Sequence record: OR896157.1
DNA: 64,000 nucleotides
Origin: a phage
Reading direction: 5' to 3' (one strand)
In this document: piece after piece, positions 25,291 to 52,057 of the stretch
Layout: each line of letters begins with the position of its first letter
Position numbering within the stretch: the stretch's first letter is position 1
The notes under the pieces: generated by a model
The model's database searches: none
Told to the model about the DNA's origin: nothing
What the model saw: only the letters and a program-made list of their open reading frames with translations
Program-made: the position numbers and the translations under genes

Positions 25291-26268
25291 TTATTTCAGC
25301 ATAGTTACTTCAGCAATTTCAGTCCAGTTTTTCTCGTCAGTAGCGACGAAATCTGCCAGGTAAAGAGCTGTGCGGAGAGATACATTACGAAGACGATTAA
25401 CGTTGTTTTGCATAAATGCCAGAACGTCAAGTACTTGGTAGTGTTTTAATCCGCGATTTTGCAACATGTCGGTTGTCATAATAACATCTTCAACGCGAGA
25501 CATGATTTCTTCGTTTGTGTGAACTCCGAGGTCCAAATAAACAGAACGAGATACTAAAGCAGAAAGATGTGGAGCTAATTTGCTGCCGCGTTCTAATTCT
25601 TTATCAATATCAACGTTAGTGATGAATACGACAGTACCTTCAAATTCAAATTCGTTTGGAATATCTTTTTCTTCCAGGAAAGCAGAAGCAGTTGACCAGC
25701 AAACTTTACGTTTTTCGCCAGAATCAAGAGCAGCTTTCAGAAGGTTCAGAATGTCCATATCAGAAAATACATCCACATCGTCAATAAGCAGAACAGAATT
25801 TGAATGACGAGATTCCCAGAGACGGCAGTAAAGACCGATACCAGAAATTTTACCGTTAACCATTTTGTATTCAATATCACCGCGAGCATCTGCTTTAGTT
25901 AATGCTTTATCTAAGGAGAAAGTTTTACCGATACCAGCAGCACCTGAGATAATCAGTGAACGAATGTTCCCGTTAACCAGACCAGCAGTCATTAACCCCA
26001 TAACGTTGAAGCGTTTAGCGATACGTGCTTTCATTTCTTCAACAGATTCGGTCAAAACTTCTTTGACTTCTTGACCTTCAATTTTGTAATCACCGTGGAA
26101 AACCCATACTCCGCGTTTCTTACCATCGATGTTTACGAATACTTTACCATCACCCTGAGCAGCATCAGATTCTGATAAATCTTTTGGGAACCACTCGCCC
26201 AGAAGTTCGAAGGTACCAGAGATTTCTTTACCGAAGTTAGTACCTTTAGCGATAGTGATGGTTTTCAT
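25291..26268 (-). CDS. P-loop NTPase (AAA-like)
   Basis: 325-aa ORF; Walker A GAAGIGKT, Walker B-like LLIDDVD. Confidence 0.6.
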   Translation of the reverse strand: MKTITIAKGTNFGKEISGTFELLGEWFPKDLSESDAAQGDGKVFVNIDGKKRGVWVFHGDYKIEGQEVKEVLTESVEEMKARIAKRFNVMGLMTAGLVNGNIRSLIISGAAGIGKTFSLDKALTKADARGDIEYKMVNGKISGIGLYCRLWESRHSNSVLLIDDVDVFSDMDILNLLKAALDSGEKRKVCWSTASAFLEEKDIPNEFEFEGTVVFITNVDIDKELERGSKLAPHLSALVSRSVYLDLGVHTNEEIMSRVEDVIMTTDMLQNRGLKHYQVLDVLAFMQNNVNRLRNVSLRTALYLADFVATDEKNWTEIAEVTMLK

Positions 26269-26982: not shown

Positions 26983-27030
26983 CACTTTTTGAAAACTTTC
27001 TTCAAAAACAACAAAACCTCCCGAAGGAGG

Positions 27031-27291
27031 TTATTTTGAGTGTTTTTCTAGCTGACGTTCAGCAAACAGCTTTGGCTGCATTAACAACCAACTTAAGATA
27101 CGCCAGATGACTTGTATGACACCGACAGGTAGCCATAATATAATACTAAACAAGTAATTAAAAGGTGTCTCTATGAACCCTCGTTTAACGAGAGCGTTTG
27201 TGATGAGCCACCCGACGGCTAGATAAACCAATACAATAAAGACGGGCATAATCCACCATAGTTGAGCCAAAAGTAAAGTAACCATAATCAC
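27031..27291 (-). CDS. hypothetical membrane protein
   Basis: 86-aa ORF, two hydrophobic helices. Confidence 0.5.
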   Translation of the reverse strand: MIMVTLLLAQLWWIMPVFIVLVYLAVGWLITNALVKRGFIETPFNYLFSIILWLPVGVIQVIWRILSWLLMQPKLFAERQLEKHSK

Positions 27292-28298
27292 CTGTAGTAA
27301 GAGTTGTGGTTCGCCAGATAAACTTCTTCAAGGAACTTGTCCCAGAATGTCATGTCAACTTTATCAGGCATACCGTTTTTAGAAGCGATGATGCTTTGAC
27401 GTTCAACTTCATCTACACAGTTTTCTAACCACTCTTGAACTTCTTTGAATGGAATAGTGCCGGCTTTAACTTTCTTGATGAACTCAGCATCTTTAAGCGG
27501 ATAAACCAAATCACCGGTTGTGTAGATTTCCTGGAGCTGAAGACCACCACGAAGAGCATGAGACAGAGCTTTCCAGTCTACACCTTCGTTAGCTTCTGCT
27601 TTACGAGCACGTTCACCGTATTCGTTCCAGAGCTTAGTAAGACTGTATTTCATTTCGGCAACAGTGATTGTTGTCTGGAATTTACGACCAAGCACGTTGT
27701 AGAACTTCTGAACGCCAGATTTGTGGTCAACAAAATCAGTCCACTCAAGGAACTCTGAAGTTGGAAGCAGATGAGCAATATCAGCAACTTTCCAACGAAC
27801 ATTGTGAGCTTTATCTTTTGGACGGTCTTCGTATTTCCATTCTGGATAAGGCTCTAATACTTCAAGAACTTTACGAAGTTCAGCTAAACGAGAACCTTTG
27901 ACACCATACTTAGCTGCTTGCTTACGAACATAACCAAGATAAGCTTTCATATCGGTGGTGTAGAAACGCCAGCGGTTGTCTTGGATAAATTTCCAGACAT
28001 CAGGCAGGTCAGATTTAACAATCAGATTAGCAGGAGTATGAAGCATATCAAGAGCAACAGTTTCTCCTGACTGAGCGAGTTCCAACCAATACTTGAGAGA
28101 ATAGAGTTCATGGTCAACGTCATCGTGAGAATTCTTTGTTGAAGTGTTGTTAGTATTCATATTAGTATGGTTCATTGCACGACCCATAAGAATATCTTTT
28201 GGGTGTGGAACGAAGATTTCTTTGAAGTCCGTGTCACTTTCTGGTGTTGACGTACCGTAAAGATGGCTACCGAAGTAGCCTTTCATAACTGTTTTCAT
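27288..28298 (-). CDS. nucleotidyltransferase-fold protein (Pol-beta superfamily motif GS-x9-DxD)
   Basis: 336-aa ORF; N-terminal FGSHLYGTSTPESDTDF; helical C-terminal domain. Confidence 0.5.
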   Translation of the reverse strand: MKTVMKGYFGSHLYGTSTPESDTDFKEIFVPHPKDILMGRAMNHTNMNTNNTSTKNSHDDVDHELYSLKYWLELAQSGETVALDMLHTPANLIVKSDLPDVWKFIQDNRWRFYTTDMKAYLGYVRKQAAKYGVKGSRLAELRKVLEVLEPYPEWKYEDRPKDKAHNVRWKVADIAHLLPTSEFLEWTDFVDHKSGVQKFYNVLGRKFQTTITVAEMKYSLTKLWNEYGERARKAEANEGVDWKALSHALRGGLQLQEIYTTGDLVYPLKDAEFIKKVKAGTIPFKEVQEWLENCVDEVERQSIIASKNGMPDKVDMTFWDKFLEEVYLANHNSYYR

Positions 28299-28849
28299 TT
28301 AGTCGGTTGACCCCATGTGAATTGACCACCGAAAGCCGCAATCAATGAAGTGTCATTCAGATTAACTGGCAGACCGTCGCCGCTTTCGGATTCGAGGAAC
28401 ATTGTACCACCATTTTTAGTGATAGCAATTACAGTGAATTCTTTAGAACCCTTTTGGAAGACATCACCAACAACTACCGGAATATTTTTAAAACCAGAAG
28501 CTTCCGCTTCATATGTTTCTGTATATCGGCCGTCTTTTGGTCTGAAATTAGTGAAATCAACCAGGTACTTATTACGAATTGAAGTTACATACACATTAGT
28601 AACACCATATGATGTAATTTTATCTTCATCATAAATGAAGAGTTCAATCATTACACGAGTTGAATATACTTTTAAAACAGCTCGTTGATTTTTATTGATT
28701 TTAAGGAAAATATGAGTTGCTCCTTGGCAACGGCTAATAAAATCAATTTCACCATCAAATTCTGTTGTTCCGGATTGAACAGTAATTGAGCGTCCAACTT
28801 CAAGTTCTTTCTTTACAATGCCTTTAGCTTTCACTTGACGAATAAACAT
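28295..28849 (-). CDS. hypothetical protein
   Basis: 184-aa ORF translationally coupled upstream of the NTase gene. Confidence 0.5.
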   Translation of the reverse strand: MFIRQVKAKGIVKKELEVGRSITVQSGTTEFDGEIDFISRCQGATHIFLKINKNQRAVLKVYSTRVMIELFIYDEDKITSYGVTNVYVTSIRNKYLVDFTNFRPKDGRYTETYEAEASGFKNIPVVVGDVFQKGSKEFTVIAITKNGGTMFLESESGDGLPVNLNDTSLIAAFGGQFTWGQPTK

Positions 28850-28858
28850 AATATTTTC

Positions 28859-29080
28859 CTATAAGAAGCGCCATGAGCCATTACGATATGCAACTGAACG
28901 GTCCATCATTTCGGAAGAGGTAGAACTTCCGCTGAGTTTGTCATGAACTACTGTAATTTTGCGTCCGTCAGCAAAAATAAATTCGGCTACTGGACGCAGG
29001 CCAGTAAAGCCTTTGTCCACAGTTGCATTAAATTTAGCAGATTCACCGTTGATAATATAGTTCTGGTCTTGTTTAAGCAT
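28859..29080 (-). CDS. hypothetical protein
   Basis: 73-aa ORF. Confidence 0.4.
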   Translation of the reverse strand: MLKQDQNYIINGESAKFNATVDKGFTGLRPVAEFIFADGRKITVVHDKLSGSSTSSEMMDRSVAYRNGSWRFL

Positions 29081-29532
29081 TATTTAAATTCCAAAGTTGG
29101 GCAGAACTTCTCTTTGCGAGCTTTAATGAAAGCAATAATGATATTAGGTTGTGGTTCAACGTAAGTACCATTTCTGATAGCTTCCCATTTTTTATCTTCT
29201 TTCTTTTCTTTTCGTCTTTGAACGACTCGATAAATTCCGTAACCAATACAGAAAATTGTACCAAAAATAGCCGCCAACAAAATCCAACCAATAATCATTC
29301 CAGGGACAAATGCTACAGCAGACGAAAGAATCACACCACATTGAGCGAATAACCAAGTAGCTAAATCTACACCACTAGCCCATCCAACAAAAACTACAGC
29401 ACAAACAGCGAATAGCAGGAGGAAAGCATGCCAAACACCTTTCCAAAAATATGGACACAGAGAACGTGGAGCGCTTTCAGCGCCATTCATAGTAACGAGT
29501 TTGTAGTGCCAAGAGTTAGTATTGATTTGCAT
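29080..29532 (-). CDS. hypothetical membrane protein
   Basis: 150-aa ORF with 3-4 predicted TM helices. Confidence 0.5.
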   Translation of the reverse strand: MQINTNSWHYKLVTMNGAESAPRSLCPYFWKGVWHAFLLLFAVCAVVFVGWASGVDLATWLFAQCGVILSSAVAFVPGMIIGWILLAAIFGTIFCIGYGIYRVVQRRKEKKEDKKWEAIRNGTYVEPQPNIIIAFIKARKEKFCPTLEFK

Positions 29533-30260: not shown

Positions 30261-30550
30261 TGCATCTCCTGAATAGCTTTTAAGAAGTTATCAAGATTCT
30301 CTTTACTGCAAAAAGATACGCATCCGTAGCTTCCATCTTTTGCTTCAAAAGTAAATGAATCATCACCATAATCAGTGTAATCAATATTAGGGCATTGATT
30401 GCATTCAATCAGATGTGCTTTGTCCAGACGAAAATGGATTTTGAACAAATCTTCATCGCCTTCATGACCAAGTTTGCAAAAGTTTCCACGTACTTCAAGA
30501 ACCAGAGGACCATGTACTGAACCGCTTTCAAATGTATATTTCATAATCAC
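30257..30550 (-). CDS. hypothetical protein
   Basis: 97-aa ORF. Confidence 0.45.
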   Translation of the reverse strand: MIMKYTFESGSVHGPLVLEVRGNFCKLGHEGDEDLFKIHFRLDKAHLIECNQCPNIDYTDYGDDSFTFEAKDGSYGCVSFCSKENLDNFLKAIQEMQ

Positions 30551-30816
30551 CTCAATTGCGAATCTTTTGAACCGCGTCTGTTATAAGACGCTTTAATGAT
30601 AGTATCATGTGAGCTTTGGCAAGCTACACAACGAGTGCATCCTTTTTGAGCTTTGCGTCTAGCTTCCGGAATTTCTCCGTCACAATCTTCACAGTATTTT
30701 TCACTCTCACGATTTTGAGATTTGATGAGCTCTAAACGAGCCCATTCAATTCCATCACTTACTGTAGCCTCAATAGCTGCAAATCCGTCGTCACTTGGAC
30801 CCCATCCACTTGCCAT
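30547..30816 (-). CDS. hypothetical zinc-ribbon protein
   Basis: 89-aa ORF with CEDCDG...CTRCVAC. Confidence 0.5.
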   Translation of the reverse strand: MASGWGPSDDGFAAIEATVSDGIEWARLELIKSQNRESEKYCEDCDGEIPEARRKAQKGCTRCVACQSSHDTIIKASYNRRGSKDSQLR

Positions 30817-30840: not shown

Positions 30841-30870
30841 ATTATACCATTAACTAAGTTGTATGTAAAC
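30841..30870 (-). promoter_or_regulatory. T4-type early promoter (GTTTAC-N18-TATAAT)
   Basis: minus-strand motifs. Confidence 0.6.
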
Positions 30871-46803: not shown

Positions 46804-46879
46804 TGGTGCCGGTTAACGGATTCGAACCGCTGACCCTCTCATTACAAATGAGCTGCTCTACCAACTGAGCTAAACCGGC
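46804..46879 (-). tRNA. tRNA-Thr (anticodon UGU)
   Basis: manual fold: acceptor GCCGGUU/AACCGGC, D GCUC..GAGC, anticodon loop UUUGUAA, T-loop GGUUCGAAUCC, CCA encoded. Confidence 0.8.
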
Positions 46880-46880
46880 T

Positions 46881-46965
46881 TGGTGCATCAAGAGGGATTC
46901 GAACCCTCAATCCTTTCGGCGGGGCATTTTAAGTGCCCTGTGTATACCAGTTCCACCATTGATGC
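46881..46965 (-). tRNA. tRNA-Leu (anticodon UAA), class II
   Basis: acceptor GCAUCAA/UUGAUGC, anticodon loop CUUAAAA, 13-nt variable arm, T-arm GAGGG-UUCGAAU-CCCUC. Confidence 0.8.
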
Positions 46966-46971
46966 GAAATT

Positions 46972-47056
46972 TGGAGCTAGGAGTGAGATTCGAACTCACG
47001 AAGGGATACCCGGCGGATTTGCAATCCGCTGCCTTTGGCCACTCAGCAACCCTAGC
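46972..47056 (-). tRNA. tRNA with class-II architecture and anticodon GCA (Cys-type)
   Basis: acceptor GCUAGGG/UCCUAGC, anticodon stem-loop GCGGA-UUGCAAA-UCCGC, 13-nt variable arm CGGGUAUCCCUUC; assignment tentative. Confidence 0.5.
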
Positions 47057-47060
47057 AAAT

Positions 47061-47138
47061 TGGTCGAGGTAGAGGGATTCGAACCCGTCGACCTGTGGAT
47101 TAGAAGTCCACTGCTCTATCCAGCTGAGCTATACCCCG
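47061..47138 (-). tRNA. tRNA-Arg (anticodon UCU)
   Basis: acceptor CGGGGUA/UACCUCG, D GCUC..GAGC, anticodon loop CUUCUAA; T-stem has only 3 clean pairs. Confidence 0.7.
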
Positions 47139-47142
47139 AGTG

Positions 47143-47268
47143 TGTTCAGACAGGACTCGAACCTGTAAGCATGTTCTTGCGGCGTTTTACCACCGTCGTC
47201 AGCATATGATTCAATATGCGAACTCAAAAGGTGTTGGACCCCTTGTCTACCAATTCCAGCACTGAACA
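47143..47268 (-). ncRNA. 126-nt tRNA-like stable RNA candidate (possibly rnaC/rnaD-type)
   Basis: 7-bp acceptor-like helix UGUUCAG/CUGAACA and canonical T-arm ACAGG-UUCGAGU-CCUGU enclose ~93 nt with D-loop-like AAUUGGUAGA but no canonical anticodon arm. Confidence 0.4.
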
Positions 47269-47278
47269 ACTTTATTTA

Positions 47279-47503
47279 TTACATATCAACTTGAGTAAAC
47301 CAGTTGATTTTGAAATACTCATCAAAATGAAGAGCAGGTTCAACTTGAGTATCTTCCTCAAGAAGAATTAAATTCTTTCTTACAATCGGGTCAAGATGAG
47401 TTGTGTTTAAGCAGCTATCATGCCAATATGTAAGAACTCGATTTGATTCAGTATCAACGAGATAACGAACATTCATATCAGGATGTCGGTACAGATTAAT
47501 CAT
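47279..47503 (-). CDS. hypothetical protein
   Basis: 74-aa ORF. Confidence 0.45.
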   Translation of the reverse strand: MINLYRHPDMNVRYLVDTESNRVLTYWHDSCLNTTHLDPIVRKNLILLEEDTQVEPALHFDEYFKINWFTQVDM

Positions 47504-47506
47504 AAT

Positions 47507-47956
47507 CTATTTCTCTTGAAGCATTTTGCGTAAACGATAGAGCTGATTACAAAATTCCTTTTCAGTCAAAACTGTTTCAGAGATTTTGTTCTTGCCCATA
47601 CTGTGGGTTAATGTTGCGTTACGAGTAGCAATCAATGCTTTTTGGAATCCAGTGTTTTGAGCAAGTGCGTCATAAGCTCCAGTTAAAAGATTCTGGTATG
47701 CTTCAGATGCTCGATGAATAGGAACACCCTTCCAATAAAGTGTTTGAGTAGGCCACCAACGCTTCTTCTTACCTTTGAACTTTGCTGCCTTTCCAACCAA
47801 TGTGCAAACATGAGCTTGCATTTCAGGGTTAGAAAATTTGAGGGATTGTAAAAATCCCTCCATTGAAGCACATTCTACACCATCATAAACGAAAGCATGT
47901 GGTGCAAAGTTACTTAAAGCACAAGAAGGATATGAACTTCCAGAGCCAATGTCCAT
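47507..47956 (-). CDS. NADAR/YbiA-like protein (DUF1768), candidate ADP-ribose glycohydrolase
   Basis: 149-aa ORF; SNFAPHAFVYDGVECASMEGFLQSLKF resembles remembered E. coli YbiA core (SNFA..DG..SEHYFQAQKF); downstream W...ALxAT pattern also shared. Confidence 0.5.
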   Translation of the reverse strand: MDIGSGSSYPSCALSNFAPHAFVYDGVECASMEGFLQSLKFSNPEMQAHVCTLVGKAAKFKGKKKRWWPTQTLYWKGVPIHRASEAYQNLLTGAYDALAQNTGFQKALIATRNATLTHSMGKNKISETVLTEKEFCNQLYRLRKMLQEK

Positions 47957-48187
47957 TTAATTACCGTGAGATATTCTAGAAGGTTTCTTACCAAAATAAT
48001 ATTCATATGAGCCATCTAAACGACCTGCTTTAGTGCGGCAATATGAATCCCATTTCTTATAATGCCGCCATTCATCATTGTATCTTGGATGACGGTCAGC
48101 GATTAAAATCTCTAATGGCCAACCAGGCGCAAAGGAACGGAGCCGTTCGACCTTTCTAATGTATCTTTTCTTTAAGATTTTCTTCAT
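47957..48187 (-). CDS. hypothetical basic protein
   Basis: 76-aa ORF. Confidence 0.45.
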   Translation of the reverse strand: MKKILKKRYIRKVERLRSFAPGWPLEILIADRHPRYNDEWRHYKKWDSYCRTKAGRLDGSYEYYFGKKPSRISHGN

Positions 48188-48405
48188 ATAGATTCCGACA
48201 TTACGTGAGTAGTTCTCTTTCTGATTGTAAATTGAGTTAATTCATCAACTTCACCACAACGCCAAGCGTCATCTTCAGTTTCAAAACCAAGAGCCTCGAA
48301 TAAGTTGCCTAAACGCCAACCTTCGTCAAACTCGGGGTCTCCTGAAAAATAGTAATAGTAATCGCCAGTTACTAAATCTTGAATTACAAAATCAAACTTT
48401 TCCAT
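48184..48405 (-). CDS. hypothetical acidic protein
   Basis: 73-aa ORF. Confidence 0.45.
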   Translation of the reverse strand: MEKFDFVIQDLVTGDYYYYFSGDPEFDEGWRLGNLFEALGFETEDDAWRCGEVDELTQFTIRKRTTHVMSESI

Positions 48406-48902
48406 CAGATACTTACCACAGTAATAGCTTCAGGAGCTTTAGGAATAACGATATCTTCTTCAATGTAGAAGAGCTTAAATGTTTCAGCTACACGCATAAA
48501 GTCAATATCATAACCGACTGGAGTTCCAATCAATTCTTGAATCTTATCCATCACTTTATACTGAACTTGATAGAAATCTTCAAGACGAGCATCGAATTCA
48601 TCTTCAGTATAATCACCTTCTGGGATTACAAAGCCAAGCACTTCTGAACAGAACTCTGGAGTGATTTCTTCATTTTCAACACAGTATTCAAAGAAAGCAT
48701 CACCGGAATAATCTTCATTACCCATTCCATTAGGGTCTGAATTATCAGATGCAAAACATTTAGCAACGGCACACCAACCTGAAACGTGTCTAGCATTTAC
48801 AGCATAAATCACATTCTCTTGATAATCATCGCCATCGTTTTCCCATGATACACATGATACTGCATAACCTTTAGGGATAGTTTGACCAAAGCGGAGTTCC
48901 AT
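48405..48902 (-). CDS. hypothetical acidic protein
   Basis: 165-aa ORF. Confidence 0.5.
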   Translation of the reverse strand: MELRFGQTIPKGYAVSCVSWENDGDDYQENVIYAVNARHVSGWCAVAKCFASDNSDPNGMGNEDYSGDAFFEYCVENEEITPEFCSEVLGFVIPEGDYTEDEFDARLEDFYQVQYKVMDKIQELIGTPVGYDIDFMRVAETFKLFYIEEDIVIPKAPEAITVVSI

Positions 48903-48912
48903 AATATTTCCT

Positions 48913-49287
48913 TCAATTAAATGGTGGAAGAGATTTCTTATATAAATCTATCATCATTCGCCATTTAGCAATTACTTTAGAATACGGAGATTTATGAGAG
49001 AATTGCGAAATGTCAGAATAATCAAGTTCAGGCAGTGGAGTTAAATGACCCATCAGCTCACGAGGAAATTGATGAAAACAATTCATCAAATCTTTGTAAA
49101 CATAATCAAGTAAGTCTTTAACATCAAAGAATTGGGTATTTAGTCCTTCTTTGGAATAACGATATTTCAAAAATTTCCAATGACCGGACTTAGAATCTTG
49201 AGTAAACGCGTAATCACTATGAAGCATGATATCGCGAACAAAATCTTCAGAAAAGAAGATGGAGTGAGTGCAACCATAATAAATCAT
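48913..49287 (-). CDS. hypothetical protein (124 aa)
   Basis: track ORF trimmed to ATG 49287 (GAGGA SD) so it no longer overlaps tRNA-Met. Confidence 0.5.
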   Translation of the reverse strand: MIYYGCTHSIFFSEDFVRDIMLHSDYAFTQDSKSGHWKFLKYRYSKEGLNTQFFDVKDLLDYVYKDLMNCFHQFPRELMGHLTPLPELDYSDISQFSHKSPYSKVIAKWRMMIDLYKKSLPPFN

Positions 49288-49305
49288 AATATTTTCCTCA
49301 GAATT

Positions 49306-49382
49306 TGGTGACCCCAGCAGGACTCGAACCTGCAACCTAGCGATTATGAGTCGCGTGCTCTAACCAATTGAGCTATAGGGCC
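49306..49382 (-). tRNA. tRNA-Met (anticodon CAU), elongator-type
   Basis: acceptor GGCCCUA/UGGGGUC, D GCUC..GAGC, anticodon loop CUCAUAA, T-arm GCAGG-UUCGAGU-CCUGC, CCA encoded. Confidence 0.8.
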
Positions 49383-49409
49383 AAAGTCCTCCTAAGAGGA
49401 CCGAGGGTA

Positions 49410-49634
49410 TTATTCAACCATGAAATCTGCTACTTCATCAAAGTCGTTATTGATGACAACAGTAAATGGCAGAGCTTCATCACTTGTTTTGATAGTCAGC
49501 TTAACAAAACCATCAACAGTTTCAACCAAACCAACGATTTTATCTGAACGCACTACAGCACGAGCTACGTCAACAATTTTACCAGTCATTGCAAATGTAG
49601 CGATTTGGTTAACTTCAACAACGATACGTTTCAT
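49410..49634 (-). CDS. hypothetical protein
   Basis: 74-aa ORF. Confidence 0.45.
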   Translation of the reverse strand: MKRIVVEVNQIATFAMTGKIVDVARAVVRSDKIVGLVETVDGFVKLTIKTSDEALPFTVVINNDFDEVADFMVE

Positions 49635-49695
49635 TCTTTTTCCTTAGTGGTTTTGATAAGGTAATTATATACTGAATTTTTAAAGCGTTTTCACT

Positions 49696-49729
49696 AAAAA
49701 GCCCCGTAACAGATTTCTCTGCTCGGGGC
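49696..49729 (-). terminator. intrinsic terminator at the distal end of the tRNA array
   Basis: minus-strand GCCCCG...CGGGGC stem followed by UUUUUAGUG. Confidence 0.55.
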
Positions 49730-49735
49730 GTCATT

Positions 49736-49810
49736 TGGTGGGAAGTGTTGGAATCGAACCAACCTCTCATGCTCTTCAGGCACGCGCTAATCCATCTCAG
49801 CTAACTTCCC
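49736..49810 (-). tRNA. tRNA-Phe (anticodon GAA)
   Basis: acceptor GGGAAGU/ACUUCCC, anticodon stem-loop CGUGC-CUGAAGA-GCAUG, T-arm GUUGG-UUCGAUU-CCAAC. Confidence 0.65.
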
Positions 49811-49813
49811 GAT

Positions 49814-49890
49814 TGGTCGGTGCGGCAGGATTTGAACCTGCGACCCCTTGGTCCCAAACCAAGTGCTCTACCAAACTGAGCTACACACCG
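49814..49890 (-). tRNA. tRNA-Pro (anticodon UGG)
   Basis: acceptor CGGUGUG/CGCACCG, D GCUC..GAGC, anticodon loop UUUGGGA, T-arm GCAGG-UUCAAAU-CCUGC. Confidence 0.85.
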
Positions 49891-49896
49891 TTAATT

Positions 49897-49971
49897 TGGA
49901 GCATCCAGAGAGAATCGAACTCTCATCTACTGGGTGGAAGCCAGTCATAATAGCCGCTATACGATGGATGC
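49897..49971 (-). tRNA. tRNA-Gly (anticodon UCC)
   Basis: acceptor GCAUCCA/UGGAUGC, anticodon stem-loop ACUGG-CUUCCAC-CCAGU, T-arm GAGAG-UUCGAUU-CUCUC. Confidence 0.8.
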
Positions 49972-49978
49972 AATTTGT

Positions 49979-50070
49979 ACGGAACGCCTGGATTCGAACC
50001 AGGTTAAATTGCGATTGACGTCACAATTTATCTTATGAAGGCCATGCCTCTACCATATCCGAACGTTCCG
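49979..50070 (-). tRNA. atypical tRNA-like gene / possible pseudo-tRNA with CAU-type anticodon loop (UUCAUAA) and a 9-bp hairpin insertion
   Basis: perfect 7-bp acceptor CGGAACG/CGUUCCG and T-arm CCUGG-UUCGAAU-CCAGG, but weak D and anticodon stems and a 26-nt perfect hairpin before the T-arm. Confidence 0.35.
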
Positions 50071-50121
50071 TCAAAAACGCTACTCGGCTTACGGCTTAGG
50101 CAATTCCTCGAACCGATAATT

Positions 50122-50195
50122 TGGCAGGCCCCGTAGGAATCGAACCCACGTCACTGAGGTTGGAGCTCAGGATAATACCACTATACGAGAGACCT
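50122..50195 (-). tRNA. tRNA-Trp (anticodon CCA)
   Basis: acceptor AGGUCUC/GGGGCCU (two G-U), anticodon stem-loop CUGAG-CUCCAAC-CUCAG, T-loop UUCGAUU. Confidence 0.7.
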
Positions 50196-50199
50196 AAAA

Positions 50200-50293
50200 T
50201 GGAGGAAGCGGTGGGATTCGAACCCACGGACCGTATCACTACGGCCTCCGCATTTCAAGTGCGGTGCAATTAACCAGACTCTGCCACGCTTCC
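50200..50293 (-). tRNA. tRNA-Ser (anticodon UGA), class II
   Basis: acceptor GGAAGCG/CGCUUCC, anticodon stem-loop CCGCA-CUUGAAA-UGCGG, long variable arm, T-arm GUGGG-UUCGAAU-CCCAC. Confidence 0.85.
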
Positions 50294-50297
50294 GAAT

Positions 50298-50373
50298 TGG
50301 GGTGACCGATGGGAGTTGAACCCATGACTACGAGAATCACAATCTCGAGTTCTACCAACTGAACTACGGCCAC
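50298..50373 (-). tRNA. tRNA-His (anticodon GUG)
   Basis: acceptor GUGGCCG/CGGUCAC, D GUUC..GAAC, anticodon stem-loop CGAGA-UUGUGAU-UCUCG. Confidence 0.85.
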
Positions 50374-50587
50374 ATCAATATTCACTCCAGCAATCATGAT
50401 GCCTTCACACGAAATTGAGAGAAGAGTGATCAGTTCAACCCTTGTAGACGCGTCAAGTAAATATTGATGTGACAGCTTATTTAAGAAGAGTGAGAGTCCC
50501 AGTCTTGTACGGAGTAACCATTTATGCATTGGCAGCTATCGCGCGGTTCGCACTTCCGATAAATGGACTTACCGTTACACTCTAATT

Positions 50588-50662
50588 TGGCTGGACTATC
50601 TGGATTCGAACCAGAGATACCGGAGTCAAAGGCCGGTGACTTAACCGCTTGTCTATAGTCCA
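50588..50662 (-). tRNA. tRNA-Gln (anticodon UUG)
   Basis: acceptor UGGACUA/UAGUCCA, anticodon loop CUUUGAC, T-arm UCUGG-UUCGAAU-CCAGA. Confidence 0.8.
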
Positions 50663-50668
50663 ATTGTT

Positions 50669-50745
50669 TGGAGGCGGGTGATGGACTCGAACCATCGCGT
50701 AACGGGATATGAACCCGTCATTCTACCAACTGAAGTTAACCCGCA
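50669..50745 (-). tRNA. tRNA-Met (anticodon CAU), initiator-like features
   Basis: anticodon stem ACGGG/CCCGU with three consecutive G-C pairs next to loop UUCAUAU; position 1:72 mismatched; T-arm GAUGG-UUCGAGU-CCAUC. Confidence 0.65.
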
Positions 50746-50898
50746 TCTATCCGGATTCTTGAAGTACTAACAAGTAGCTTGATGTAGAACACGCTAAAGA
50801 TATAATCTTACGAATATAGAGCTTATTCCGTGGGAACAAACAGCTTCGTCCTCGGCATTATCTTACAGGACTCTGACTTATCTTCAAGAACTGCCTCG

Positions 50899-51363
50899 TT
50901 ATTTTATGAACTTATTTATGAATCGTCTAGCTTGAGTATGACTGACTCCAAGTTCATTTGCAAATTTTACTAATGCACCACGTTTTGTGAAATCAATAGA
51001 ATTATATAAATCTATTCTTAAAGCAATTTCATCTGCAGTGAATTTATGAGCATGATTTTCTGATATTTTTATTTTTGTTTCATCAGAATGATTATGTCCA
51101 GTAAAACCAGTAGATACGATTCTTCCATTTGCGCCAGCGTCTTTAGCATTTTGCGCATTAGTTGCGCAATAAATGTTATCCAAAGAATATGGTCCAACAT
51201 CTCCTTTACGACACATACAATAATTATCTGAGGCTCTACCGCGCAAATGATATTTGCCAGTAGCTTTCCACCATGATAGCCATTCATCAAATGTCAGTTT
51301 AAATTCAATACCTCTTGATTTAGCATGCACTTTTTGCATGCGATACTTTTCATAATCTTTCAT
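50899..51363 (-). CDS. putative freestanding homing endonuclease-like protein (nuclease-like N-half, HTH-like C-half) inside the tRNA array
   Basis: 154-aa ORF; N-terminal GIEFKLTFDEW...NYCMCRKGDVGPYSLDNIYCATNAQNAKD, C-terminal helix-turn-helix-like; T4 carries segB at the analogous place. Confidence 0.4.
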   Translation of the reverse strand: MKDYEKYRMQKVHAKSRGIEFKLTFDEWLSWWKATGKYHLRGRASDNYCMCRKGDVGPYSLDNIYCATNAQNAKDAGANGRIVSTGFTGHNHSDETKIKISENHAHKFTADEIALRIDLYNSIDFTKRGALVKFANELGVSHTQARRFINKFIK

Positions 51364-51377
51364 ATTACTCTCATATT

Positions 51378-51454
51378 TGGCAGTGCTGACGGGTTTCGAA
51401 CCCGCGATCTCTCCCGTGACAGGGGAGTGTCTTGACCATCTCGACTACAGCACT
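51378..51454 (-). tRNA. tRNA-Asp (anticodon GUC)
   Basis: acceptor AGUGCUG/CAGCACU, anticodon stem-loop CUCCC-CUGUCAC-GGGAG, T-loop UUCGAAA. Confidence 0.85.
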
Positions 51455-51699
51455 ATAAATTTACTTTCGTGAGTATGGGATTACCCTCAAGCCTTCCGGA
51501 AAGCTGAATAGGCGTTATTGGCTCTCATATACCCGTGCACAGATATAATCTTCATTAACGCAATAACTTCATCAATATACTCCGAAAGTAAACTTTCGGC
51601 GCCGTATTTAATTTTGACTGTGTAGTTATCGTTGAGGGAACTCACAGACAGGGATTAAAGTGCCGACGACTTATCAGAACGTCTTCTGACTTCTACATT

Positions 51700-51785
51700 T
51701 GGCGGGCCGTGCAGGTATCGAACCTGCCTAGTCATTTCTGACACGGATTAACAGTCCGTCGCTTACCCTCTCAGCCAACGACCCA
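51700..51785 (-). tRNA. tRNA with anticodon GUU (Asn-type) and a 15-nt variable arm
   Basis: acceptor GGGUCGU/ACGGCCC, anticodon stem-loop ACGGA-CUGUUAA-UCCGU, extra hairpin GUCA-GAAA-UGAC, T-arm GCAGG-UUCGAUA-CCUGC. Confidence 0.55.
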
Positions 51786-51789
51786 AATT

Positions 51790-51864
51790 TGGTTCTCCGT
51801 AAGAGAATTGAACTCTTCTTTCCGACGTGAAAGGCCGGCGTCCTAACCGATAGACGAACGGAGA
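51790..51864 (-). tRNA. tRNA-Glu (anticodon UUC)
   Basis: acceptor UCUCCGU/ACGGAGA, anticodon stem-loop CCGGC-CUUUCAC-GUCGG, T-arm AAGAG-UUCAAUU-CUCUU. Confidence 0.85.
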
Positions 51865-51865
51865 T

Positions 51866-51943
51866 TGGTAGGACGTGAGGGAGTTGAACCCATCGACATT
51901 CCGATTAAAAGTCGGATGCTCTAACCAACTGAGCTAACGTCCT
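51866..51943 (-). tRNA. tRNA-Lys (anticodon UUU)
   Basis: acceptor AGGACGU/ACGUCCU, D GCUC..GAGC, anticodon stem-loop UCCGA-CUUUUAA-UCGGA; T-stem only 3 clean pairs. Confidence 0.75.
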
Positions 51944-51981
51944 GTAGATATTTATAATAACAAAAATATCTTTAAGCAAAT

Positions 51982-52057
51982 TGGTGGGAATAACTGGGCT
52001 CGAACCAGTGACCTAACGATTATCGGTCGTTTGCTCTACCAACTGAGCTATATTCCC
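51982..52057 (-). tRNA. tRNA-Ile (anticodon GAU)
   Basis: acceptor GGGAAUA/UAUUCCC, D GCUC..GAGC, anticodon stem-loop AACGA-CCGAUAA-UCGUU (C at position 33). Confidence 0.7.

Follow-up and report, generated by a model that had tools for sequence, protein, structure and literature searches.

An NrdC.11-type nucleotidyltransferase of the RlaP family in a Karamvirus genome, with RNA repair as its best-supported function

What does the nucleotidyltransferase (NTase) of a T4-type phage do, and does it act together with the gene that overlaps its start? We examined this question in a stretch of phage DNA of 64,000 nucleotides (sequence record OR896157.1; hereafter, the window), in which an open reading frame (ORF) of 336 amino acids (aa; 27288..28298, minus strand in the ORF list) is preceded, in the direction of transcription, by an ORF of 184 aa (28295..28849, minus strand). 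An earlier examination of the letters alone (the sequence-only reading) had proposed an NTase-fold protein with a coupled upstream partner, and had considered tRNA-end repair, signaling, and toxin/antitoxin-like roles. We found that the 336-aa protein is very probably the NrdC.11 protein of a T4-like phage and a member of the RlaP family, and that RNA repair is its best-supported function. The upstream gene is discussed below as a neighbor.

The N-terminus of the 336-aa protein, YFGSHLYGTSTPESDTDF, contains G10-S11 and, ten residues later, D22-x-D24 (codons at 28227..28271, minus strand). This is the signature of Pol-beta-superfamily NTases, including the first two metal-binding carboxylates, as judged from residue conservation and profile alignment. 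The sequence-only reading had recognized the motif but had counted nine residues between its parts; the arrangement is GS-x10-DxD, a spacing within the Pol-beta range. The Pfam model PF10127 (RlaP, 'RNA repair pathway DNA polymerase beta family') matched residues 8-136 at profile positions 25-144 of 249 with 50.4 bits (E = 3.2e-13), against a gathering cut-off of 23. The protein also matched phrog_388 ('nucleotidyltransferase') at 1e-127, and T4 NrdC.11 in a tblastn search with 68.5% identity over residues 1-336. Relatives numbered 2887 in a collection of 5.8 billion proteins, and PF10127 was precomputed on 120 of 120 among the matches listed, including proteins of phages T2, Bp7, and VR7 called NrdC.11. 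Among 1.84 billion cluster representatives, 3123 relatives were found at E<=1e-3, and tblastn found the gene in 1558 of 50,697 phage records.

Both ORFs are real genes and did not arise by chance: the NTase has the 2887 database relatives and 1558 phage records mentioned above and the 184-aa protein matches phrog_10164 at 8e-81. The NTase gene is already known and is an ordinary one for a T4-like phage: it has been deposited many times, is annotated as an NTase or NrdC.11 (deposited proteins at 96-99% identity already carry the name 'nucleotidyltransferase'), belongs to PF10127, and has been pointed out in publications as the RlaP of T4. In GenBank and UniRef, the same protein is called 'thioredoxin' in many records, apparently propagated from the name of the neighboring nrdC gene, and one record calls it 'HNH homing endonuclease'; no family match in our searches with the NTase backs either label.

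The 2.6 kb around the gene pair was 97.5% identical to Enterobacter phage KKP_3262 and 90-97% identical to PG7, CC31, and other genomes of Karamvirus, T4-like members of the Straboviridae. The window is thus from a Karamvirus, a CC31/PG7-like T4-type phage. In CC31, the homolog is annotated as nrdC.11 with a 'predicted nucleotidyltransferase motif'; nrdC.10 follows it downstream, and rI, tk, and vs are found at a greater distance upstream, an arrangement that identifies the classical nrdC-tk early region of T4. The gene name nrdC.11 is given in CC31, RB32, and RB43. Both full-length high identity and synteny with nrdC.10 were observed, as expected of the T4 NrdC.11 orthologous group (phrog_388), and we have very little doubt about either the RlaP-family membership or the orthology with NrdC.11.

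To define the conserved residues, we aligned 64 homologs with 33-68% identity. G10, S11, G15, S21, D22, D24, Y131, R230, D241, K243, H247, R250, P267, and G280 were invariant, and D60, D62, and D84 were conserved in at least 90% of the homologs. We then compared the profile of the NTase family with that of ten canonical RlaP proteins of 255 aa by using hhalign. The GS, D22xD24, and D62 of the phage family paired with the GS, D37xD39, and D73 of canonical RlaP (probability 93.6%, E = 2e-7, 115 columns), and D73, the counterpart of D62, is invariant among the canonical RlaP paralogs. The motif residues therefore fall on catalytic positions, and the misalignment that, by the sequence-only reading, would have refuted the assignment was not observed. 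D62, encoded within the D60-V61-D62 codons (28113..28121, minus strand), is probably the third catalytic carboxylate. The 336-aa protein belongs to the Pol-beta superfamily of NTases, and its catalytic residues are intact.

An AlphaFold2 model built on an alignment of 43 sequences (predicted local distance difference test 83.6; predicted template modeling score 0.68) had an alpha/beta NTase core at the N-terminus; its C-terminal domain was helical and finished in a long helix. The helical domain had been anticipated by the sequence-only reading. The model also showed a beta-hairpin insert at about residues 184-208, which that reading did not mention. In the model, D62 is at the start of the strand 61-67, and R230, D241, K243, H247, and R250 are located in the helices 213-235 and 242-261 (codons at 27549..27611, minus strand; invariant in the 64-homolog alignment). 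No relative of the NTase was found by single-sequence or profile search among Protein Data Bank (PDB) sequences, in a copy that evidently lacks the RlaP crystal structure described below, and Foldseek with the model gave nothing at E<=1e-3. The predicted fold places the protein with 'minimal NTase plus helical domain' enzymes and not with CCA-adding enzymes or cGAS/DncV-like NTases (CD-NTases).

The biochemistry of the family is recent. The Burroughs-Aravind prediction, in the part of Iyer et al. 2021 that summarizes it, is that RlaP NTases work with RNA ligases, putting back nucleotides cut out by nucleases such as RloC ahead of ligation (PMC7824862). Carruthers, Fatma and Huang (bioRxiv, December 2025) studied two Pseudomonas enzymes, PfRlaP and PaRlaP, and found that they add one or two nucleoside monophosphates (NMPs), or deoxynucleoside monophosphates (dNMPs), to the 3'-OH of RNA and not to DNA or protein (PMC12776372). 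Of the substrates, a mimic of cleaved tRNA was preferred, with addition to its 5' half, and Mn2+ was the best metal. RlaP partly rescued the aminoacylation of a tRNA short of one anticodon-loop nucleotide, showed little specificity among nucleoside triphosphates (NTPs), could use dATP on RNA ends, and labeled full-length tRNAs in total RNA. The reaction leaves a 3'-OH end, which a 5'-phosphate ligase such as Rnl1 needs. In the crystal structure of PfRlaP, a cleft separates the NTase domain at the N-terminus from a helical domain at the C-terminus, and T4 NrdC.11 was named as a family member in cluster 5 of the sequence similarity network (all PMC12776372). By analogy with this description of PfRlaP, the invariant polar cluster from R230 to R250 may form an NTP- or RNA-binding cleft in the phage protein.

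We next considered the genomic context of the homologs. For cellular members we used 80 bacterial or archaeal loci encoding full-length relatives of the long NTase (31-53% identity), clustered the neighboring genes, scanned the representatives with Pfam, and set a distance limit of 4 kb. An RNA-repair gene was present within this distance in 21 of the 80 loci, next to full-length homologs of the long clade with 33-42% identity. Canonical RlaP was directly downstream of the long NTase in 11 loci; the kinase-phosphatase-ligase Pnkp (PF16542) was found in seven, Ro60/TROVE in four, Hen1 (PF12623) in three, and T4-type Pnk with an Rnl1-type ligase in two. Gene orders such as Hen1-Pnkp-long NTase (L137:894-6972), Pnkp-long NTase-RlaP (L138:3338-7802), and TROVE...long NTase-RlaP-Hen1 (L119:6001-9158) were observed in bacteria. 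The presence of two RlaP-type NTases in one repair operon suggests, from gene order, that their activities are non-redundant and that they may divide the labor.

In phages, the association is seen at another level. PG7, which is 96% identical in the NTase region, encodes both pseT and rnlA. When records with RnlA or the NTase were counted by genus among the 50,697 phage records, the numbers were nearly identical (RnlA and NTase, respectively: Escherichia, 637 and 638; Klebsiella, 287 and 286; Shigella, 83 and 83; Enterobacter, 56 and 56), which is consistent with a shared pathway. The RNA-repair association is thus at the gene-neighbor level in the cellular members of the clade and at the genome level only in phages.

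From these observations, RNA or tRNA repair is the best-supported function, and we somewhat favor, by analogy with the Pseudomonas enzymes, a specific mechanism in which the phage NTase patches cleaved tRNA. D22, D24, and D62 would bind two divalent metal ions, probably Mn2+, and the enzyme would use NTPs to extend the 3'-OH of a broken RNA, without a template, by one or two NMPs. Its substrate would probably be the 5' half of a tRNA whose anticodon loop has been cut by a host anticodon nuclease of the RloC type, which trims off a nucleotide as well. Once the lost length was restored, the phage Pnk (PseT) and the 5'-phosphate RNA ligase Rnl1 could reseal a fraction of functional tRNA, which would keep phage translation running. 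The NTase would then be an accessory counter-defense enzyme and an extension of the classical T4 tRNA-repair pathway. The T4 nrdC.11-mobD.3 block can be deleted under laboratory conditions (PMC9825161), as expected of an accessory gene. The tRNA-end repair suggested by the sequence-only reading survives in part: repair stands, but the likely target is a broken 3' end inside a cleaved tRNA and not the CCA end, because 18 of the 19 phage tRNA genes encode CCA and no CCA-adding family was matched.

Several points weigh against this mechanism. Enzymatic activity is known for PfRlaP and PaRlaP only and for no phage member, and it comes from one non-peer-reviewed preprint whose authors acknowledge unresolved issues (PMC12776372). 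The RlaP proteins characterized so far, with about 250 aa, fall into another sequence cluster, and homology to canonical RlaP was detectable only over the N-terminal 115-130 residues. The C-terminal half of the phage NTase showed no profile-level alignment to canonical RlaP; this half and the beta-hairpin insert are specific to the clade, and the substrate or product could therefore differ. The co-distribution of rnlA and the NTase is confounded by the common descent of T4-like phages, and the phage NTase gene is not adjacent to pseT and rnlA, which are about 85 kb away in PG7.

If the repair role is true, T4-type phages would own a third tRNA-repair enzyme beside Pnk and Rnl1, with which the phage could survive those anticodon nucleases of the host that foil simple re-ligation by taking out a nucleotide. 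The hypothesis is already in the literature (Burroughs-Aravind via Iyer et al. 2021; Carruthers et al. 2025), and the window adds one ortholog to it.

The same clade-specific features give rise to a more novel alternative, which we consider unlikely: the long NrdC.11 clade may carry out a distinct step and not the published RlaP activity. The step could involve another nucleotide or end specificity, or the synthesis of short oligonucleotides as by HalB, the closest structural neighbor, and in phages it would serve as counter-defense against nucleotide-excising anticodon nucleases or against a nucleotide-gated defense. This idea is raised because the clade has its own invariant C-terminal cluster and beta-hairpin insert and occurs in tandem with canonical RlaP in bacterial Pnkp/Hen1 operons.

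That the protein adds or repairs the 3' (CCA) ends of tRNAs for the 19-tRNA array of the window (46804..52057) is much less probable. The size of the array invites the idea, as does the labeling of full-length tRNAs by RlaP in total RNA (PMC12776372). However, the protein matched PF10127 alone; neither a head-domain match to the CCA-adding or poly(A) polymerase families nor a tRNA-binding body or tail of such enzymes was found, and nearly all of the tRNA genes, as mentioned above, already encode CCA. Deutscher, Foulds and McClain reportedly found in 1974 that the host cca enzyme is required for certain T4 tRNAs, so T4 itself would seem to lack a CCA-adding activity. The low NTP specificity of RlaP (PMC12776372) also argues against CCA addition. 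The array is evidence neither for nor against a repair role. The 19th tRNA is a 95-nucleotide 'tRNA-Met(CAT)' called by ARAGORN at 49977-50071 (minus strand) with no encoded CCA end; this may be a miscall, or else a tRNA that is unusual, degenerate, or interrupted by an intron.

We assign a similarly low probability to a signaling or anti-defense oligonucleotide synthase, whether a HalB-like maker of oligodeoxyadenylate that acts as a decoy against a Hailong-type system, a CD-NTase-like enzyme, or a mimic of the AMPylating antitoxin of the minimal nucleotidyltransferase (MNT) type against HEPN RNases. The use of dATP by RlaP on RNA ends (PMC12776372) could be taken in its favor. HalB, however, is only 13% identical with a Foldseek E of 0.02-0.09, a resemblance at the level of the fold, as was also the case for HEPN-associated NTases, and neither family-level similarity to HalB nor an adjacent HalA-type effector gene was observed. 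Neither protein of the pair matched PADLOC, and the NTase matched no CD-NTase family or fold, which speaks against the signaling role that the sequence-only reading had kept in view. Its toxin/antitoxin-like option fared no better: the NCBIfam MntA model reached 11.8 bits against a cut-off of 60, and the NTase is flanked by genes for a small membrane protein and for the all-beta orphan, with no HEPN gene among them. The MntA match and an NCBIfam GatB match, both far below their cut-offs, were rejected. In addition, the cellular homologs sit in RNA-repair operons and not in defense or signaling operons.

The remaining question is whether the 184-aa gene is a partner of the NTase. The sequence ATGA at 28298..28295 is both the start of the NTase gene and the stop of the 184-aa gene; thus, the 4-nucleotide overlap (28295..28298, minus strand), as the sequence-only reading had stated, exists. 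The 184-aa protein, predicted to be all-beta, matched phrog_10164 (unknown function) only; no relatives were found in Pfam, NCBIfam, PADLOC, or the PDB, and no HEPN or other recognizable fold was seen. Its relatives comprised 6 clusters in a single-sequence search and 20 in a profile search, all from T4-like phages. The co-occurrence across phages was poor, as the 184-aa gene was found in 169 phage records, about one tenth of the 1558 with the NTase.

A 141-aa gene is situated between nrdC.11 and the 184-aa gene in CC31 and other Karamviruses (loci L005 and L009 are examples). It accounts for a 422-bp indel in the Karamvirus DNA matches (window junction 28298/28299 versus L001:7296-7721), which corresponds to the ORF CC31p099; the window and PG7 do not have this ORF, whereas CC31 and many other Karamvirus genomes do. 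CC31p099 is 71% identical to the immediate upstream neighbor in Klebsiella phage Roth21 and did not match the upstream neighbor in RB32.

When the immediate upstream genes at 80 viral loci were clustered by sequence, 30 clusters were obtained. The largest was the 184-aa family (18 of the 80 loci), and the next was a phrog_944 membrane protein (14 of the 80; T-even and Acinetobacter phages). In T-even, RB32-type, and Acinetobacter phages, the gene next to nrdC.11 on its upstream side encodes the phrog_944 protein. The homolog in the window has 150 aa (29080..29532, minus strand) and the motifs NSWHYK ... ARK.K.CP..EFK, and a 73-aa gene and the 184-aa gene are inserted between it and nrdC.11. 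In diverse viral contigs, the Pfam matches of the upstream neighbors were a P-loop kinase, NUDIX, an HNH endonuclease, DNA polymerase A, or none, with no recurrent theme. We also considered the upstream neighbors as remote homologs of one hidden partner and rejected this, as CC31p099 is unlike the RB32 neighbor and the second cluster (c2, phrog_944) is unrelated to the 184-aa protein.

Overlaps of 4 or 1 nucleotides with the start of the NTase gene are likewise found for many of the unrelated upstream neighbors at the viral loci, and 4-nucleotide overlaps occur at 23 of the 108 adjacent minus-strand junctions in the window (21%). We conclude that the overlap is the generic packing of T4-type early operons, and that the 184-aa gene is a lineage-specific insert and not a conserved partner. 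An accessory interaction restricted to the lineage is conceivable, although nothing observed speaks for it. A two-component module, in which the 184-aa protein would be the specificity, regulatory, or toxin-like partner of the enzyme, is a similarly improbable reading: the shared ATGA, the diverged 184-aa-related family at the 18 loci (among them Aeromonas phages with an NTase only about 50% identical), and about six more viral loci with a related gene one gene further upstream would fit it, but T4, T2, RB32, RB43, and the Acinetobacter phages have unrelated upstream genes instead, most commonly phrog_944, the 184-aa gene is much rarer than the NTase and in many Karamviruses is separated from it, none of the 80 cellular loci has a 184-aa-type neighbor, the partner has no recognizable fold, and the overlap is ordinary. 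No support was found for the coupling proposed by the sequence-only reading, and later work should not treat the 'coupled partner' as half of a two-gene system; we regard the 184-aa gene as a neighbor.

As for the rest of the transcription unit, an 84-aa predicted membrane protein (27031..27285, minus strand; phrog_6166 at 8e-35; homolog CC31p097) is encoded by what appears to be the last gene, which begins 2 nucleotides past the NTase stop. Just 3' of it, a consensus scan found a terminator-like hairpin (27015..27032, minus strand; AACCTCCTTCGGGAGGTT and then a T-run) that may close the unit. Its stem is a perfect GC-rich one of 7 bp (AACCTCC-TTCG-GGAGGTT) with T-runs flanking it on the minus strand, and the scan rates it as a terminator in either orientation. 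At the other end, the best sigma-70-like match of the scan (TTTACA-17-TATAAT with an extended -10 TG; 30841..30869, minus strand; 11 of 12 matches) is a putative promoter that precedes a block of 10 genes holding the NTase and the 184-aa gene. Promoter-like sites in the scan numbered 27 versus 23.6 expected from shuffles, i.e., with no excess, and the operon boundaries are only suggestions drawn from consensus matches. The first gene after the promoter-like site encodes a protein of 89 aa (30547-30816, minus strand) that has a C4 zinc-finger motif and is the counterpart of a DksA/TraR-type protein in the annotations of CC31 and Roth21. The nrdC.10 homolog (25291-26268, minus strand; 325 aa; phrog_1250 at 1e-157) is located three small genes downstream of the NTase. 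It has a P-loop and weak sub-threshold matches to the AAA_22, AAA_16, and nSTAND NTPase models and to clamp-loader PHROGs, and is a conserved T4-type ATPase with no assigned function.

Among known systems, Hailong HalB, the kanamycin, aminoglycoside, and lincosamide nucleotidyltransferases, and the MNT-HEPN modules are distant from the phage NTase: identities were 7-14% with no family-level match, and the genomic contexts are different. The T4 Pnk-Rnl1 pathway, which counters the anticodon nuclease PrrC, belongs to the same phage lineage as the NTase and has a matching phage distribution. The classical pathway works without nucleotide addition, and NrdC.11 would have a putative role in it. The bacterial RlaP proteins of Pseudomonas fluorescens and P. 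aeruginosa, encoded in RtcB-RtcA operons (PMC12776372), share with the phage NTase PF10127, the GS/DxD/D residues, and, as predicted for the phage protein, the combination of an NTase domain with a helical domain, and the cellular relatives of both are found near RNA-repair genes. The phage protein is about 85 residues longer, aligns at the profile level in its N-terminal 115-130 residues alone, and, unlike bacterial RlaP, its clade has the beta-hairpin insert and the invariant R230, D241, K243, H247, and R250; in the sequence similarity network, T4 NrdC.11 is in cluster 5 and not in cluster 1a (PMC12776372). The closest system is T4 NrdC.11 itself, an uncharacterized protein of 38.9 kDa from the nrdC-mobD region, together with its orthologs in the Straboviridae. 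The T4 protein has the same length, the 68.5% identity over 336 residues, and the same neighborhood, with nrdC.10 downstream and rI/tk upstream. Only the small flanking genes differ, as the window has the 184-aa and 73-aa genes before the phrog_944 gene and T4 has mobD.

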